Of a stretch of DNA of 64,000 nucleotides, positions 21,028-37,665 are shown piece after piece. Position 1 is the first letter of the stretch, and every line of letters starts with the position of its first letter. The notes below the pieces were generated by a model. It did no database searches. It was not told the DNA's origin and worked only from the letters and a program-made list of their open reading frames with translations. This stretch comes from Candidatus Poribacteria bacterium (GTDB lineage Bacteria > Poribacteria > WGA-4E > GCA-2687025). The stretch covers positions 2,752,001 to 2,816,000 of the forward strand of contig OY762492.1 of assembly GCA_963665845.2 (NCBI GenBank), in the 5' to 3' direction. Position numbers and translations under genes: made by a program.

Positions 21028-22185
21028 ATGGCGAACGTTATCTCGGGGCTGCAAGACGTCGCGCTCACCGAATCGAAAATATGCAGAATCGATGGCTCCG
21101 CCGGCCATCTTATCTACCGCGGATACGACATACGGGACCTGGCTCAAAACGCAACTTTTGAAGAGACGGCATATCTGCTCTGGTCGGGCGACCTGCCGAC
21201 GCGCCCGCAGCTGGACGCGCTGAACGCGCAGCTTGCCGCCGAGCGCGGCATTGACGAGAACACTTATCGGCTCATCGCCTCTTATCCCAAAACAGCCCCG
21301 CCGATGGACGCGCTGCGCACATGCGTCTCCCTGCTCGCCAGCGCCGATCCGGAGATGGAGGACAACTCCAACGAAGCGAACCTGCGCAAAGCGGTTCGGC
21401 TCACCGCCAAGTTTCCGACCATTCTCGCCGCTGTCTACCGCCGTTCAAACGACCAGGAGCCGGTTCCGCCGCTCAAAGACGGCAGCTCCGCCGCCAATTT
21501 CCTTTATATGCTCAGCGGCGAGGAGCCGGATCCGTTCGTCGCGCGAACGCTGGACGCCGCGCTGACGCTCCACGCCGAGCATGGAATGAACGCTTCCACC
21601 TTCTCGGCGCGGGTCACCTGCGCGACCCTGTCCGATATGTACGCCGCGGTCACATCGGCGCTTGGAACGCTCAAGGGACCGCTTCACGGCGGCGCGAACG
21701 CGATTGTGCGCGCGATGCTTGAGGAGATAGGGGCGCCTGAAAACGCCGGGCAGTATGTGAAGGAGACGCTTGCGGGCGACCGCGTCGTCCCAGGTCTCGC
21801 GCCGAAACGCATACCGGGCTTCGGCCACCGCGTCTATACATCGTATGATCCGCGCGCGGCGGTCTTGCATGGGATGTCGGAGACGCTCGGAAAACGCGCG
21901 GGCGAAACGGTCTGGGTGGACATCTCCGAGGCGGTTGTGGCGGCGTGCGAAAAGGCGGGTCTTTATGAAAAAGGCGTCTATCCGAACGTCGATTTCTTCT
22001 CGGCGTCCGCCTATACGACGATGGGCATCGATGTTCCGCTCTTCACGCCGGTGTTTGCGCTGGCGCGCATCACGGGCTGGACGGCGCACATCATTGAACA
22101 GCACAACGACAACCGACTCATACGCCCGAAAGCGGTCTATGTCGGCGAAGAAGGGCGGGTCGTTCAGCCGATTGAAAAGCGGTAA
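21028..22185 (+). CDS. Citrate synthase / 2-methylcitrate synthase family
   Basis: Motifs LIYRGY, HAEHGMNASTF, GPLHGGAN, PGFGHRVY, YPNVDF and LIRP. Confidence 0.95.
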   Translation: MANVISGLQDVALTESKICRIDGSAGHLIYRGYDIRDLAQNATFEETAYLLWSGDLPTRPQLDALNAQLAAERGIDENTYRLIASYPKTAPPMDALRTCVSLLASADPEMEDNSNEANLRKAVRLTAKFPTILAAVYRRSNDQEPVPPLKDGSSAANFLYMLSGEEPDPFVARTLDAALTLHAEHGMNASTFSARVTCATLSDMYAAVTSALGTLKGPLHGGANAIVRAMLEEIGAPENAGQYVKETLAGDRVVPGLAPKRIPGFGHRVYTSYDPRAAVLHGMSETLGKRAGETVWVDISEAVVAACEKAGLYEKGVYPNVDFFSASAYTTMGIDVPLFTPVFALARITGWTAHIIEQHNDNRLIRPKAVYVGEEGRVVQPIEKR

Positions 22186-22234
22186 AGCCGACAGAAGACG
22201 CGGGGGATGACATGAGCAAATCGGGGAGGAAACG

Positions 22235-23044
22235 ATGCCGCATTTAACGGAACTGGGAGCCGGTTTGTTTTCATCGAATCTGGTTGAACAGGCGCCGATT
22301 GCATTGCTCAAGCCGCTCAACGCCTTGACGCCAAAGAGATATTCCTCGGAAGACGGCGCCGACCTATCAGAATTCGACTCCGAATTGAAAAGCGCGGCGG
22401 CGGCGCTTTGTCAGGCGGCGGCGGATATTTTGAGGGGAAAAGAAGCCGACGCCGTACCCGAATACAAAGCGGCGATTCAACATTCTAACGCGGCAATTCG
22501 GCTGGCGGAGCGGATCGATTTTGTAGAAAAGGCGGAGGCAGCGTCAGCAAGCCTTTACTATTTACGCGGGCTTGCTGCGTTGACGATGATCGCGATAGAG
22601 AACGGCTCCGCCGATCTGAATGCGGCGGTTGCAGACCTTGCCAAGTCGGCGGAGCTGAATCCCATTGCGGAAACCTATCTGCGCTTGGGCGAAGCGCATG
22701 CCTATGCGGGCAATCTGGACGCCGCGGTTGAATGCCTTGAAAAAGCGACCGATTTGGACATCTATTGCGCCGAAGCGTTTCTCCTAAAAGGACTTGTCCA
22801 CGAAGCGAGAGGCGACGAGGACGACTATCATGACGAAATCTACACGGCTCTTTGTCTAGACCCTGGTCTTTACAGGGAAGAGTTTGAGCCGGTCATGAAA
22901 GAAGCGCGGGAATGGGAAGAGAAATGGGACAAGACGCTGCAAAGCCCTGAATCGATTGCAATGCTGCAGGCATGGGCAGAAAAATCGAAGAGGAACGAGA
23001 GCAGATATGAAGAAACAGAGCCGTCCATTTCCAAGGACGGTTGA
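22235..23044 (+). CDS. TPR protein with C-terminal antitoxin-like tail
   Basis: TPR motifs (AETYLRLGEAHAYAGNLDAAVECLEKA); tail EEKWDKTLQSPESIAMLQAWAE; TGATG overlap with a toxin gene. Confidence 0.8.
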   Translation: MPHLTELGAGLFSSNLVEQAPIALLKPLNALTPKRYSSEDGADLSEFDSELKSAAAALCQAAADILRGKEADAVPEYKAAIQHSNAAIRLAERIDFVEKAEAASASLYYLRGLAALTMIAIENGSADLNAAVADLAKSAELNPIAETYLRLGEAHAYAGNLDAAVECLEKATDLDIYCAEAFLLKGLVHEARGDEDDYHDEIYTALCLDPGLYREEFEPVMKEAREWEEKWDKTLQSPESIAMLQAWAEKSKRNESRYEETEPSISKDG

Positions 23045-23331
23045 TGCGATCTAGACAGAACTCGGATTACTGGAACGAATACAACCGCCTACCGAAGACG
23101 ATACAAAAGCGGGCTGAAAAAGTCCTACGCTTATTTGACGACAACCCGCAGTATTCCAGCCTTCATTTTAAGCAAGTCGCCCCCTACCTGTATTCTATAT
23201 GGATCAACCGAAAATACAGAATTCTCGGACATTTGGAAGAAACCGCCGATGGCGAAGGCATCGTGTGGTACTGGACAGGGCCGCATGATCCGTACGAAAA
23301 AGAAATACGGAAATGGAATCGATCGCTCTGA
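23044..23331 (+). CDS. RelE/ParE-superfamily toxin
   Basis: About 95 aa: YWNEYNRLPKTIQKRA...NPQYSSLHFKQV...SIWINRKYRILG...VWYWTGPHDPY, matching the usual FxxxPxHPSLxFK...YRALG...WxWIGxHxxY pattern. Confidence 0.85.
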   Translation: MRSRQNSDYWNEYNRLPKTIQKRAEKVLRLFDDNPQYSSLHFKQVAPYLYSIWINRKYRILGHLEETADGEGIVWYWTGPHDPYEKEIRKWNRSL

Positions 23332-23354
23332 ATCCTTTTGAGGAGCGGCTCGTT

Positions 23355-23520
23355 CCTCCTGAAAAGGGGCTAGGGAGGTTTAACAGACCTTATGTCTTTA
23401 GTTGGCACATTCCGTCTGGTGAACGCGGACGGTTTCAGCGGCGCCTCTGGATTCCCGCTTGCGCGGGAATGACGAGATGGGGCGCGCGGGAATGACGAGA
23501 TGGGGCGCGCGGGAATGGCG
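23355..23520. repeat. Composite repeat cluster with short tandem GCGCGGGAATGACGAGATGGGGC units
   Basis: MITE-like end at 23384; ATTCCC-N8-GGGAAT at 23451-23470. Confidence 0.82.
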
Positions 23521-23557
23521 GGCGCGCCGCTTGATCGCCGGCGCGCCCCCCCAGCCT

Positions 23558-24451
23558 CTATGAATTCGCCTGACACCGCCGAAGATGCACATTCTTGGGC
23601 GTCTCCTCAACGCCTTTCCACGCATACGGATCGATGCCCGCGACGGGGACGATGCATCGATGGTCGGCGGTGGCGGGGCGCTCTCCTTGACGAATGCTCC
23701 ACGGCAGCAGCGACCAGGCGTTGCAGTAATGGTTCACCAGGACGCGCCGATAGGTATCCCCGCGGTTCTTGCGCGAGCGATGCAGCAGATACCCGTTGAA
23801 AAAGACAAGCGTCCCTGCAGTCGCCTCCACCGGAACCTCCTGCGTCTCGTCAAACCCGTAGCTCTCCGGGGTGAAATCGAACTCGTCAGGGTTCTCATGC
23901 GCGCGCTGCGGATATAGATACCCTTGCCGATGCGATCCTGGGACGACCCACAGGCAGCCGTTTTGGATCGTCGCGTCGTCCAGCGCGATCCAGGCGCCGA
24001 TGAGCGAGCGGTCGCGCGTCGGGATGTAGATCTCGTCCTGATGCCACGCCTGACCCTGAAAGCCCGGCGGCTTCACAAACAGCATCGACTGCATGCATTT
24101 GACGCTGCCGTCCCAATACGGCACATGCGCCGCCGTCAGCTGGCTCAACGCGCCGCATATCTTTGGATGCTTCACATACTCCAGCATGACGGGGCTGACA
24201 AAATGCGGCTGATGGATGCATAAGATGTCCGCCAGCGCCTCCTCGTCGGTCGTTTCGTCGGGGAGCGGCGGCATGGCGTCGCATGGATAGCCGCCGCGCG
24301 CCAGGTATGCCGTGTCCGCGCGCAGCTCCTCCACCTCCGCCGCCGTCATGAGATTCGGCGCCGCATAATATCCGTTCTCAACAAAAAACTGCACATCCGC
24401 CTCTGACAGCGGCTTCGGCGTCTCGATCAAGGGGGTTTCCGCGATGGCCAT
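23558..24451 (-). CDS. Phytanoyl-CoA dioxygenase (PhyH) family Fe(II)/2OG oxygenase
   Basis: Motifs QAWHQD, WIALDDATIQNGCLWVVPGSH and LLHRS. Confidence 0.92.
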   Translation of the reverse strand: MAIAETPLIETPKPLSEADVQFFVENGYYAAPNLMTAAEVEELRADTAYLARGGYPCDAMPPLPDETTDEEALADILCIHQPHFVSPVMLEYVKHPKICGALSQLTAAHVPYWDGSVKCMQSMLFVKPPGFQGQAWHQDEIYIPTRDRSLIGAWIALDDATIQNGCLWVVPGSHRQGYLYPQRAHENPDEFDFTPESYGFDETQEVPVEATAGTLVFFNGYLLHRSRKNRGDTYRRVLVNHYCNAWSLLPWSIRQGERPATADHRCIVPVAGIDPYAWKGVEETPKNVHLRRCQANS

Positions 24452-26049: not shown

Positions 26050-27471
26050 CTAAAACAGACCCTGCTGCATCCGCTTGCCCGTATAGGGGTTCGTCATGGG
26101 CGGGAGGGGGCAGGGGCGGTTGTTGAAATAGTCGTCCATCGACCAGAGAAGCAGCCGCTGATACGATTGACCGCGGACGACGATCGTACCCTGCTCCACA
26201 GCGCGCGACTTGGCGTCCGGCGACGCGACAGGATCCAATGTGATGAAACGTCCAATTGCCGCCTCATCGCTGTTGATGACGCCGATAAAGTCGCGCAGCG
26301 CGCCGGCGGTGAACTTTCCGCCCTTCACCTGCGCCAGCGCGAGACGCGAGTCCCAGTCGTCCGGCTCGTCATACAGCATGCCGCGACCGTCCACGCCGCC
26401 GTCCGCCACCTGCTTCGTGTTCGGCGCGAAGCCTGGGAGGCGCGTCACCGCCCATGACTCAAACTCAAACGGCTTCTCGCGCGCCAACTTGCGCGCCGAC
26501 TCCAGATCAGCGGGAATCCCCTTGACAGGAATCGACTCGTCCTGCAGCCGCTGCCGGACGAGATCGATGGCGAAGGAGCTGATGTCGACGCCAGCCCAGC
26601 GGCGGTTGAGACGGCGCGCCGCTTCCACCGCTGTGCCGCAGCCGCAAAACGGGTCCAGGACAATGCCGCCTTCGTTGGACGACGCCTCAATAATGCGGTT
26701 TAACAGCGCCAGCGGTTTCTGCGTCGGGTAGCCTAAACGCTCTTTGGACGCCGGCTGAAGACACGGCAGGCTCCAAACAGCGTCTATCTTTTTGTCAGTG
26801 GAGATTCTATACATCAGGTTGCCGTCGGCATCCCGTTTATTTTTCAATACCCCGTCCACATTGACCCGTTGAAGTTGCTTTACCGGCTTATCGCGCAATT
26901 CGCGCAGGGGCTGAAACGAATAATCGGCGCCCTTGGAATAGAACAGAATCTGATCGTAATTTCTGCCAAATATCCGTTTGCCCGCTGAATATTTGTTGTA
27001 GTAGTGCCAGACGATCTCGTTTCTGAAATTCTCCTTGCCGAAAATGGCGTCCATAAAGATTTTAAGATAGTGGCTGGCGGTCGGGTCGCAATGGAGGTAG
27101 ATGGAGCCTGTCGATTTCAGGATACGGCGCATTTCCTCTAGACGCTCCGCCATGTAGGTCAGGTACGCCAGCATTCCGCAGCGGCCGAGTATGCGGCGCA
27201 ACCCGAGAATCGCGTCATGCGCGAGGCGTCCGGGCGCGTTTTCAAACTCCGCATACCGCTTCGCTGCGGCGGCGTCCCAGCTCCATGTGTCGTTGAAGGC
27301 GCGGTATTGCGCTTTTCCGTCGCCTTTATCGCTGAAGAGGACGTTGTAATTCGCGTTGGAATTGAACGGCGGGTCGAGATAAATCAGGTTGACGCAGTCC
27401 GATTCCCACTCGCGCATCCAGTCTAGGCAGTCGCCGTAGTAGAGGGTGTCGGGGTTGAACTCTTGCGCCAT
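26050..27471 (-). CDS. N6-adenine/N4-cytosine DNA methyltransferase (beta class) fused to a C-terminal Mrr-like PD-(D/E)XK domain
   Basis: LIYLDPPF precedes YPTQKP and VLDPFCGCGT; the C-terminus has FEFESW...DGGVDG...AQVKGG. Confidence 0.88.
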   Translation of the reverse strand: MAQEFNPDTLYYGDCLDWMREWESDCVNLIYLDPPFNSNANYNVLFSDKGDGKAQYRAFNDTWSWDAAAAKRYAEFENAPGRLAHDAILGLRRILGRCGMLAYLTYMAERLEEMRRILKSTGSIYLHCDPTASHYLKIFMDAIFGKENFRNEIVWHYYNKYSAGKRIFGRNYDQILFYSKGADYSFQPLRELRDKPVKQLQRVNVDGVLKNKRDADGNLMYRISTDKKIDAVWSLPCLQPASKERLGYPTQKPLALLNRIIEASSNEGGIVLDPFCGCGTAVEAARRLNRRWAGVDISSFAIDLVRQRLQDESIPVKGIPADLESARKLAREKPFEFESWAVTRLPGFAPNTKQVADGGVDGRGMLYDEPDDWDSRLALAQVKGGKFTAGALRDFIGVINSDEAAIGRFITLDPVASPDAKSRAVEQGTIVVRGQSYQRLLLWSMDDYFNNRPCPLPPMTNPYTGKRMQQGLF

Positions 27472-27579
27472 GGTCCGCCTTTCGCGCGATTCCTGTTTGC
27501 CGTTTTGAGCAGTATGGCAAAGGCGGGCTGTTTGCGCAACTGCTTGCCTTCCGGACGCCGGACGGACGCTTCGGGGTTT

Positions 27580-28887
27580 CTAAGATTCCCCTCTGCTAGC
27601 CCGCTCAAGTTCTTCCGCTTTTTCGCGGTCTTGTCTGGCTTTTTCATGCTCGCCTATTCTGCCGTAAGCTAAGCTGCGATTTTTATAGGCGTCAGTATAG
27701 TTTGGGAAGATTTCTATGGCTTTGCTCAAGTTCACTATCGCCGCATCAAAGATGTTCAGGGCGATAAAAACGCGGCCACGGTAGTAATAGGCTAGTGCGT
27801 TAACGGGTTGGAGCTCTATCGATTTTGTCAAATCCTCCAATGATTTGCTATATTCTTCTTTATTAAAGTGGGCGATTCCGCGATTGGTGTAAGTATTGGC
27901 ATTATTCGGATCAATTCCGATCGCTATATTTAGGTCAATGATTGCCTTGTCATATTCCTTTTGATTGGTGTAGGCAAGACCGCGATTGGTGTAAGTATTG
28001 GCATTATTCGGATCGATTTCGATCGATATGTTTAGATCAATGATTGCCTTATCATATTCACCTTTATAGTTGTAAGCGAGACCGCGATTGTTATAGGCTG
28101 CGGCGTCGCGCGGACTTAGTTTAATCGCACCATTATAGTATTCAATCGCCCCATCATAATTTCCTCGAGCGTAGCAAGCAAAACCTCTATAGAACTTTGT
28201 ATAGTAGTCTCCATGATGATCTTGATAGTAAATAAAGCCATGAAGATCATTATACATTGTTTCTTTAGTGATCCCATGATATTTTTCCAAGTATGTCAGT
28301 ATCGGCACTTTAAGGACAGCTGGGATAGTGACAATATCCTCAACCTTTGGCTCAATATAGCCTTTAGGCGGTCTCACGAATACGCTTTTCTGCGCAATGA
28401 CGCGACGCTGTGGATTCTGAGGGGTTGCGATCATGTTGATTATCGCGTCCCTTTTCTGCAGGATAATTCGACCTTCTTCGCTATAATCTCGATCGCATGC
28501 GAAGAAAAGCGCACTGCGGTAATCGGTCGTGAAGTCGATCAGATTCGTCTTGCCGCCGTAATGTTGGATCTGCGTCAGAATTTCAAAATCGTCCGGGTTT
28601 TCCATACCGTACATGCCAAATCTTCGTTGCGGACGCCCTATATGCCTTTTGGCTCCATCTAACATCTCTTTTTGGACTTGTTCTATATCAAAACCAGGGC
28701 CCTCCTCCTCCCTAAATTCGTAGTCGCGCCAAAGCCTCGACGAAACCTCTGTACGGTACTTACCTTTATGGTCTTTATATCTGGATTTCGTTTCGCCGCG
28801 GAAGATGTAGCCGCCGCCCGACGACCTGATCTCAATATCGGCGATGATGTCCTCAATGGTTTTCGGTTCAGTTTTCTGATCGCTCAT
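27580..28887 (-). CDS. FRG-domain protein with C-terminal TPR array
   Basis: YIFRGE, QHYGGKTNLIDFTTD, ALFFAC, QKSVF; about six TPRs (YNNRGLAYNYKGEYDKAI); visibly AT-rich. Confidence 0.88.
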   Translation of the reverse strand: MSDQKTEPKTIEDIIADIEIRSSGGGYIFRGETKSRYKDHKGKYRTEVSSRLWRDYEFREEEGPGFDIEQVQKEMLDGAKRHIGRPQRRFGMYGMENPDDFEILTQIQHYGGKTNLIDFTTDYRSALFFACDRDYSEEGRIILQKRDAIINMIATPQNPQRRVIAQKSVFVRPPKGYIEPKVEDIVTIPAVLKVPILTYLEKYHGITKETMYNDLHGFIYYQDHHGDYYTKFYRGFACYARGNYDGAIEYYNGAIKLSPRDAAAYNNRGLAYNYKGEYDKAIIDLNISIEIDPNNANTYTNRGLAYTNQKEYDKAIIDLNIAIGIDPNNANTYTNRGIAHFNKEEYSKSLEDLTKSIELQPVNALAYYYRGRVFIALNIFDAAIVNLSKAIEIFPNYTDAYKNRSLAYGRIGEHEKARQDREKAEELERASRGES

Positions 28888-28929
28888 GTTCGTTCGCTCC
28901 CTGTTGGTTGAGTTTCTGCCACGCTGAAT

Positions 28930-36760: not shown

Positions 36761-36790
36761 TTGACATCAACCAGCGCCAGCATATATAAT
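36761..36790 (+). promoter_or_regulatory. Consensus sigma70 promoter
   Basis: TTGACA-N18-TATAAT upstream of the second TPR-antitoxin gene. Confidence 0.7.
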
Positions 36791-36821
36791 GTATGCAGTA
36801 AAGAAAAGAAAGGACGCGCGC

Positions 36822-37625
36822 ATGCTTGATCTTAGGACGTCAGAAGACGGTCGGCTGTCGATTCATTTCGGCAATTTTGCCGAGAGCGTCCGGAAGATTG
36901 GCGAGGCGGCGGATTCGCTTGCCGTTCATTTGGACTCTTCCGTCGACACGAAGGAGGAGCTGCGCGCGGCGATGTTAAGCGTAAGTGAAACGTTTCGCGC
37001 AGCCATGGAAAACATTGCCGATATTCGTATGTGCTGCCGATTGCTTAAAAAGGCGCATGAACATTACAGCGAAGCGATTCGTTTGACAGCGAAGGCTGAC
37101 CTGGGGGAGGCTGCGCATGCCGCGCCGGCGAATCTCTACCATTGCCGCGGCATTGTCGCTTTGATCCTGTACTGGTTGAAGGGGGATATTACGGACGCTC
37201 TTAACTCCGCAACTTCGGATTTCGCCAAATCGGTTGAATTGAATCCCGCGGCTGAAACATACACGCGCTTGGCGGAGGCGCATGTCGAAGCGGGCGACCT
37301 GGACGACGCTATGGAGAACGTTGAGAAAGCGATCCGCCTTGACATCGATTACGCCGAGGCGTACCTCTTGAAAGGACTCATCCACCGAGCAAGAGGCGAA
37401 GAGGACGACGCGCACGAAGAGATCTTTGAGGCGATTTCTCTCAACCCCGATCTTTACAGAGAAGAGTTTGAACCGATCATGGAAGCAGAGAGAGAATCGG
37501 AAGCGGTCTGGGACGAGTTGTTCAGCCGGCCCGAATCGCAGGAGCTTCTGAAAAAATGGGGCGAAGAAGCGTTGGAGGCGCATGACGCCGGCAAAACGAA
37601 GCCGATCGTCTTCAAGGACTCGTAA
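36822..37625 (+). CDS. TPR protein with C-terminal antitoxin-like tail; paralog of 22235..23044
   Basis: Shares AKS.ELNP.AETY.RL.EAH...LYREEFEP.M with the paralog; tail ESEAVWDELFSRPESQELLKKWGEEALEAHDAGKT. Confidence 0.8.
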   Translation: MLDLRTSEDGRLSIHFGNFAESVRKIGEAADSLAVHLDSSVDTKEELRAAMLSVSETFRAAMENIADIRMCCRLLKKAHEHYSEAIRLTAKADLGEAAHAAPANLYHCRGIVALILYWLKGDITDALNSATSDFAKSVELNPAAETYTRLAEAHVEAGDLDDAMENVEKAIRLDIDYAEAYLLKGLIHRARGEEDDAHEEIFEAISLNPDLYREEFEPIMEAERESEAVWDELFSRPESQELLKKWGEEALEAHDAGKTKPIVFKDS

Positions 37626-37665
37626 ATACGACAAGCAAATCCTCAAGTATAAGCGGTCAAGATAA
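37621..37665 (+). pseudogene. Probable C-terminal remnant of a deleted RelE/ParE toxin gene
   Basis: Reads RKYDKQILKYKRSR-stop, against the intact toxin end DPYEKEIRKWNRSL-stop. Confidence 0.55.

Follow-up and report, generated by a model that had tools for sequence, protein, structure and literature searches.

The type II toxin-antitoxin (TA) pairs RelBE, YefM-YoeB and DinJ-YafQ have a partner gene that precedes and overlaps the toxin gene, a toxin of RelE fold, and a basic toxin accompanied by an acidic helical tail. The gene pair analyzed here is alike in all these respects, and it differs from type II RelE/ParE pairs in that the partner is enlarged to 150-350 aa by TPRs and has no recognised DNA-binding domain. 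The nearest concept is that of the multidomain Panacea (PanA) antitoxins, which combine a globular accessory domain, hypothesised to sense, with exchangeable neutralising elements for different toxins (PMC10440598); the main text of that paper does not mention TPRs, and in our case a TPR array, variable in length and so far confined to Poribacteria, takes the place of that domain. According to the available text of the respective reports, antitoxin-linked sensing of phage proteins releases the toxin of CapRel SJ46 (PMC11578894), and phage sensing via antitoxin-linked parts frees the toxin in HigBAC/CmdTAC (10.1101/2024.02.24.581848). The likeness to these systems is conceptual and no homology is claimed: CapRel SJ46 is a toxin-antitoxin fusion, TAC uses a separate SecB-like chaperone, and sensing, shown for both, is something that we only infer for the TPR heads. 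For most TA families, the question of what triggers the toxin is open. We found no description of TPR-fused antitoxins in the literature searched, with supplements (e.g. NetFlax and the 2009 surveys) and subscription papers outside its scope, nor in the available text of 10.1101/2023.12.08.570793, PMC4963859, 10.64898/2026.05.29.728809 and PMC12988326. The TPR-headed pairs are real and conserved, and they are apparently an undescribed variant of type II TA systems.

The window (the whole 64-kb stretch of DNA analyzed) lies in a 3.98-Mb Candidatus Poribacteria genome (G000, 89.96% complete), and a congeneric sister genome (G001) served as the main comparison. Behind a ribosome-binding site read from the sequence (GGGGAGG, 22223..22229, plus strand), P0001 (22235..23044, plus strand) encodes a TPR-headed candidate antitoxin of 269 aa, recognised by its ORF, profile, predicted structure and dN/dS. 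Its stop codon overlaps, as TGATG, the ATG of P0002 (23044..23331, plus strand), a 95-aa RelE/YoeB-fold toxin-family gene of PF24732 according to profile, predicted fold and dN/dS. The ORFs and a TPR_8 match at residues 145-175 that barely exceeds its threshold (25.9 bits against 25.7) bear out the overlapping TPR and toxin-family genes described by a sequence-only reading of this DNA, and the adjacency is kept elsewhere, the pair being syntenic in G001 with both genes intact. It is flanked by housekeeping genes, with a citrate synthase gene upstream (21028..22185, plus strand, 49-nt gap), also adjoining in G001, and, from gene context, a PhyH-family dioxygenase gene downstream (23558..24448, minus strand). 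The GC content was 54% for P0001, 47% for P0002 and 62% for citrate synthase. A promoter and terminator scan at the locus stayed at chance level. Contigs from RNA libraries overlap parts of the locus including the P0001/P0002 junction, which is not proof of transcription, and close-relative contigs (about 98% alike, two RNA-library runs of one study) are without 23185-23554, so that the 3' half of P0002 is missing. Just 3' of P0002 lies a high-copy palindromic repeat (23386-23500), and similar repeats occur genome-wide.

The RelE/ParE character attributed by eye to the small ORF was upheld by both profile and predicted structure. P0002 scores above the PF24732 ParE_like cut-off (31.8 vs 24.4 bits), and its model (pLDDT 94.7) matches YoeB/RelE/YafQ structures first and ParE-type chains lower. 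The predicted structure gave a Foldseek E of 1.5e-5 to a YoeB-type chain and a best Z of 10.7 against RelE (rmsd 2.2, 80 aligned); Z ranged from 9.4 to 10.7 for RNase-type chains and reached up to 8.6 for ParE-type ones, the fold as such not fixing the activity. Five residues that are invariant in 33/33 aligned relatives (L40, R59, W75, G79 and H81) are kept in P0002, and position 53, an Arg in 25 of the 33, is a Trp. The closest PDB sequence match for the toxin subfamily had only an E of 0.027. A kinship of the toxin family with Synechocystis RelNE is a possible lead. Experimental work on a PF24732 ParE_like toxin with a partner of about 70 aa was not found in the literature, and with an E threshold of 0.001, neither the flagged pair nor three paralogous proteins and two small-pair proteins matched a system model of PADLOC 2.0.

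In the predicted structure of P0001, residues 1-40 have low confidence, TPR helical pairs extend over about 41-212, and two tail helices follow (215-236 and 238-261). The best Foldseek matches were consensus TPR proteins, and the model forms a TPR superhelix of 34-residue helical repeats. The last two TPR units (residues 145-212; 22667..22870, plus strand), delimited by profile and groove conservation, are nearly invariant among the orthologues of P0001, and in the last unit conserved hydrophobic residues occupy groove positions 5, 6 and 9. Across paralogues, the second-last unit had a raised groove entropy (2.73 vs 1.91 bits), with no clear rise in the last one (1.78 vs 1.51 bits). We looked for positive selection or hypervariability in the TPR grooves of orthologues and paralogues and saw none. 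Profile searches with P0001 gave no RHH, HTH, AbrB or Phd match, and no export signal was evident by eye in the N-termini of the TPR proteins.

The end of P0001 (residues 213-269; 22871..23041, plus strand) is an acidic antitoxin-like tail according to profile comparison. Small stand-alone partners of about 70 aa precede the PF24732 toxin across Poribacteria, and two profiles built independently, one from 20 TPR tails and the other from 26 such partners, aligned at 96.3% (E 1.8e-9, HHalign), compared with at most 1.2% for five natural decoy helical profiles used as a control. This homology at the family level supports the proposed fusion of a TPR module to the partner family of the PF24732 toxin. 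The resemblance to an antitoxin tail proposed in the sequence-only reading stands for the family and is weak for the flagged tail, which aligned with the small-partner profile at 3% when taken singly and at 28% when combined with its orthologues. The P0001 tail also escapes the small-partner HMM, which detects 6 of the 12 G000 paralogues at E<0.01; it is without the family Gly (present in 28/30 aligned rows), retains the conserved Trp231, is divergent in its distal part, and is 28-48% identical to its paralogues over the tail region. It is a divergent member, tied to the small partners only via its paralogues, and its core is 89% identical between G000 and G001. A paralogue search located the gene whose tail had been judged clearer (36789..37625, plus strand, start perhaps 36822); the tail is indeed canonical, but this gene has lost its toxin, of which DNA alignment shows a remnant of the last ~13 codons (37626..37665, plus strand). 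Median net charges were -7 for the tails and +8 for the toxins.

The small partner family itself is widespread. A mixed tail profile matches 146/176 genomes of the phylum, the PF24732 toxin follows the matched gene in 24/29 matches (28 fetched loci), and the pair of small partner and toxin is also found on a cyanobacterial plasmid. At 27 fetched PF24732 loci outside the genus, the upstream gene encodes 66-105 aa in 22 cases and a longer non-TPR protein in 4; none carries TPRs and one is broken. The 26 small partners gave no RHH, HTH, AbrB or Phd match and no named domain, nor any convincing PDB or NCBIfam match, and the atlas matches were 71-72-aa clusters without a name and generic TPR clusters. 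We infer the label "antitoxin" for this family from position, size and charge. Assignment to PF09720 Unstab_antitox was rejected, the likeness resting on one weak match among the 26 (E 0.01; 16.3 bits, below the cut-off of 23.3), which is a lead only. Since the profile alignment begins at residue 13 of the small partner, most of it may survive inside the TPR fusions; moreover, no DNA-binding family was matched by its first ~30 residues, and the predicted HTH antitoxin is kept whole in the TPR-UPF0175 fusions described below. The suggestion that TPRs had replaced a DNA-binding N-terminus is therefore not sustained.

Other long partners exist. Seven matches to longer forms of the small partner (among only 7993 candidates scored) included none with TPRs, and they mostly look like read-through or miscalled starts. 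Partners of about 100 aa with an extra N-terminal domain before the same tail were noticed at L016, L019, L021, L024 and L025; this domain is HicB-like by eye, and that of L016 has no Pfam match. In three other genomes, G004, G005 and G014 (L015, L030, L032, L033, L048, L049), the same toxin family follows non-TPR proteins of 160-230 aa, which are a second, separate enlargement of the partner.

We counted 12 TPR+tail genes in G000 and 11 in G001. Those of G000 precede an intact toxin (7), a frameshifted toxin (1) or the 13-codon remnant (1), or stand alone (3); in G001, 5 have an intact toxin, 4 a damaged one (frames read by eye) and 2 are alone. A toxin or its remnant is found directly behind 18 of the 23 genes, and at 11 of the 23 loci the toxin is broken or lost while the TPR frame remains open. 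The TPR-toxin adjacency is not due to chance, because all ParE-like genes of G000 (8/8) follow such a TPR protein. A survey of related genomes, as the sequence-only reading had proposed, showed that the pairs recur in G001, and with 24 candidates scored per genome, full-length TPR+tail genes were present in 2/176 Poribacteria genomes, namely G000 and G001, and not found in the 174 others. With only these 24 candidates scored, the result for genomes beyond the genus is to be read as "not found". When two partial matches were examined, neither had a tail. Among longer matches to the tail profile, 34/34 carry TPRs, and all 4 that bear an organism name come from Poribacteria; a profile search of 1.84 billion proteins gave a convincing tail in 0 of the 150 matches listed, which were dominated by long TPR arrays and are uninformative on range. 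In the toxin tree, the 13 TPR-linked toxins lie on one side of a branch with support 85/88, and the tree neither shows nor rejects a single origin for them. Most other G001 copies (L113-L117, L037) have left and right flanks that map to different places in G000, and this suggests rearrangement at or near the cassettes. There are also 3-4 tail-less TPR paralogues (L046, L047, L042:5862-6428, L036:2713-3297); three of the four retain the last few tail residues after an internal deletion.

The flagged pair is one case of a phylum-wide habit across several TA families, wider than was seen from this locus. TPR proteins precede 13 of the 15 toxin genes found in G000, and 19 of its 53 TPR frames (locally built profile) end in antitoxin-type tails. 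UPF0175/COG2886 has been described as a small HTH antitoxin with a PIN (DUF3368) partner, in a paper whose main text does not mention TPRs (PMC2701414). The second TPR-headed TA family of G000 matches these models: each of the four UPF0175 antitoxin domains is fused to TPRs, and in three cases a DUF3368-type PIN gene comes next. This pair also matches PADLOC PDC-S70, a candidate system of a class mostly lacking validation according to the available text of its report (PMC12988326). Small UPF0175 genes are common in other Poribacteria and long forms also occur; 20 long ones fetched from 20 other genomes, chosen for length, were TPR fusions without exception, 17 with a DUF3368-type PIN match next, and the repeat number ahead of the tail varied from 2 to 21. 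G000 further has four PF01850 PIN genes above cut-off, two after TPR proteins and two after proteins of about 180 aa. The tails before these genes, named in no library, are presumably VapB-like, judging by position; among 61 genomes, the combination of TPR with such a tail was found in G000 only. The ~180-aa non-TPR proteins (L050:3391-3924 and two paralogues) have no Pfam match and are related to the C-terminal part of the TPR protein at C1:3493599. In G000, no match to ParE_toxin, HicA, Phd, BrnT, Gp49 or DUF433 was found, and none to HicB above cut-off (seven families searched).

Sequence comparison also indicates that TPR heads have been swapped between unrelated tails. One TPR+tail gene shares its tail with a paralogue (97.7% identity) and its head with a PIN-linked protein (79-82% identity), and another head is 86% common to a ParE-type and a PIN-linked protein. 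In 8 fetched TPR-rich clusters, restriction genes neighbour TPR arrays that are joined to TIR, FRG and TaqI_C domains. The window holds an FRG-TPR gene (27580..28890, minus strand), in which TPRs are fused to another island domain, and, from gene context, a DNA methylase gene beside it (26050-27471; together window 26050-28890); genes of the FRG-TPR and TIR-TPR kinds are met repeatedly in the islands of Poribacteria. In two genomes, the gene of a single TPR protein lies between an upstream BrnT gene and a downstream Fic/Doc gene and overlaps both, and the protein possibly serves two toxins. At these loci (L141:6289-7884, L145:4903-6501; also L148:1948-3458 and L142:10184-11535), the TPR protein is slightly extended at its N-terminus and ends in an antitoxin-like tail (Doc-type).

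We consider it probable that the locus has a type II TA architecture in which a TPR module is fused before a putative toxin-neutralising tail. The acidic tail would wrap the basic toxin and silence a RelE-like mRNase, which is predicted to cut mRNA and stop translation; binding of a foreign (phage) protein to the TPRs would shift or destabilise the tail and free the toxin. TPRs sense phage proteins in Avs systems. Gating by a TPR sensor is plausible from genomic context, and the head may act as an exchangeable protein-binding trigger that would free the toxin on infection, a role favoured because of the recurrent fusion to unrelated tails, the swapping, the purifying selection and the defence-island company. 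Counting against it are the near-invariant orthologous TPRs, the conserved hydrophobic last groove, the loose repeat number, the loss of toxins while TPR frames persist, the tail-less paralogues and, for the flagged pair, the lack of a PADLOC match, the position between housekeeping genes, the divergent tail, the Trp at a mostly-Arg position of the toxin and the close-relative contigs that lack half of that toxin. The full sensor-gated mechanism is a tentative proposal, to which we give somewhat less than an even chance. Nearly as likely as the sensor role is a passive head acquired by recombination: TPR arrays would proliferate in Poribacteria, recombine in defence islands and so be picked up by antitoxin tails, and the head would only stabilise, solubilise or oligomerise the antitoxin and sense nothing, a reading that we regard as a serious possibility without favouring it. 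Poribacteria are rich in eukaryote-like repeats, as stated in the available text of PMC8163846, a TPR profile gives 37-507 first-look candidates per genome, the repeat number varies from 2 to 21, and the conservation and hydrophobicity of the last groove would fit self-occupation. Selection bears on both sides of this question. Between G000 and G001, dN/dS was 0.38 for P0001 (CI 0.26-0.55), 0.37 for its TPR part (CI 0.23-0.58) and 0.34 for P0002 (CI 0.20-0.62), and the value of 2.0 over the last 18 codons comes from too few sites; the pair, including the TPR part, is under purifying selection, which speaks against a merely passive head, while values of 0.37-0.5 compared with 0.10 for the adjoining citrate synthase would suit one. 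Also speaking against such a head are the fusion to at least three to four unrelated tails, the defence-type domains as the other fusion partners identified in islands, and the failure to find a small stand-alone version in G000.

Two further explanations were weighed against the trigger role. The family may derive from a TA system while the flagged copy is decaying or co-opted, with a weak or inactive toxin and a TPR protein kept for itself. The divergent tail without the family Gly, Trp53 in P0002, the deletion of the toxin 3' half in the close-relative contigs (two runs, one study) and the frequent loss of the toxin among paralogues would fit; we nevertheless hold it to be improbable, as two species keep both genes intact and in synteny, the toxin has a dN/dS of 0.34 (CI 0.20-0.62) and retains 5/5 invariant residues, and the tail core is 89% identical between the species. 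Alternatively, the head could be a eukaryote-like host-interaction module that the TA part keeps in the genome or for which it reports host contact. Sponge symbionts are enriched in TPR proteins and in TA genes, two enrichments reported separately, and according to the available text of PMC8163846 such repeats may modulate host cells. This explanation is the least probable in our view, given that the N-termini show no obvious export signal on visual inspection and that the island neighbours are restriction and TIR genes. An antitoxin must moreover stay in the cytoplasm with its toxin. Extending the trigger role to a modular immune kit, in which interchangeable TPR sensor heads, recombined onto RelE-like, two PIN-type, Doc and perhaps BrnT tails and onto TIR effectors, would act as phage sensors gating toxins, goes further, and we consider it rather unlikely as a whole.

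Natural matched sets are available here, in which one tail and toxin occur both TPR-headed and unheaded and one head occurs on different tails, and they make the idea that the accessory domain is a sensor directly testable by swaps. The findings suggest that many TPR genes of sponge symbionts counted as host-interaction factors are antitoxins or defence-island genes. TPR-headed antitoxins are likely to be missed by TA finders tuned to small proteins. If the immune-kit reading were true, part of the "eukaryote-like" TPR repertoire would consist of phage sensors, and some of these would be single TPR proteins holding two toxins.

Arrayed TPR-antitoxin/toxin pairs were also observed elsewhere in G000, at L050 and L043 (C1:1671000-1694500) and at L051 (C1:1299500-1311500), where they alternate with large genes resembling those of restriction-modification systems and with one resembling a transposase gene. 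At C1:2848256-2850064 of the same genome, a weak PIN-like gene lies behind an ATPase-like gene.
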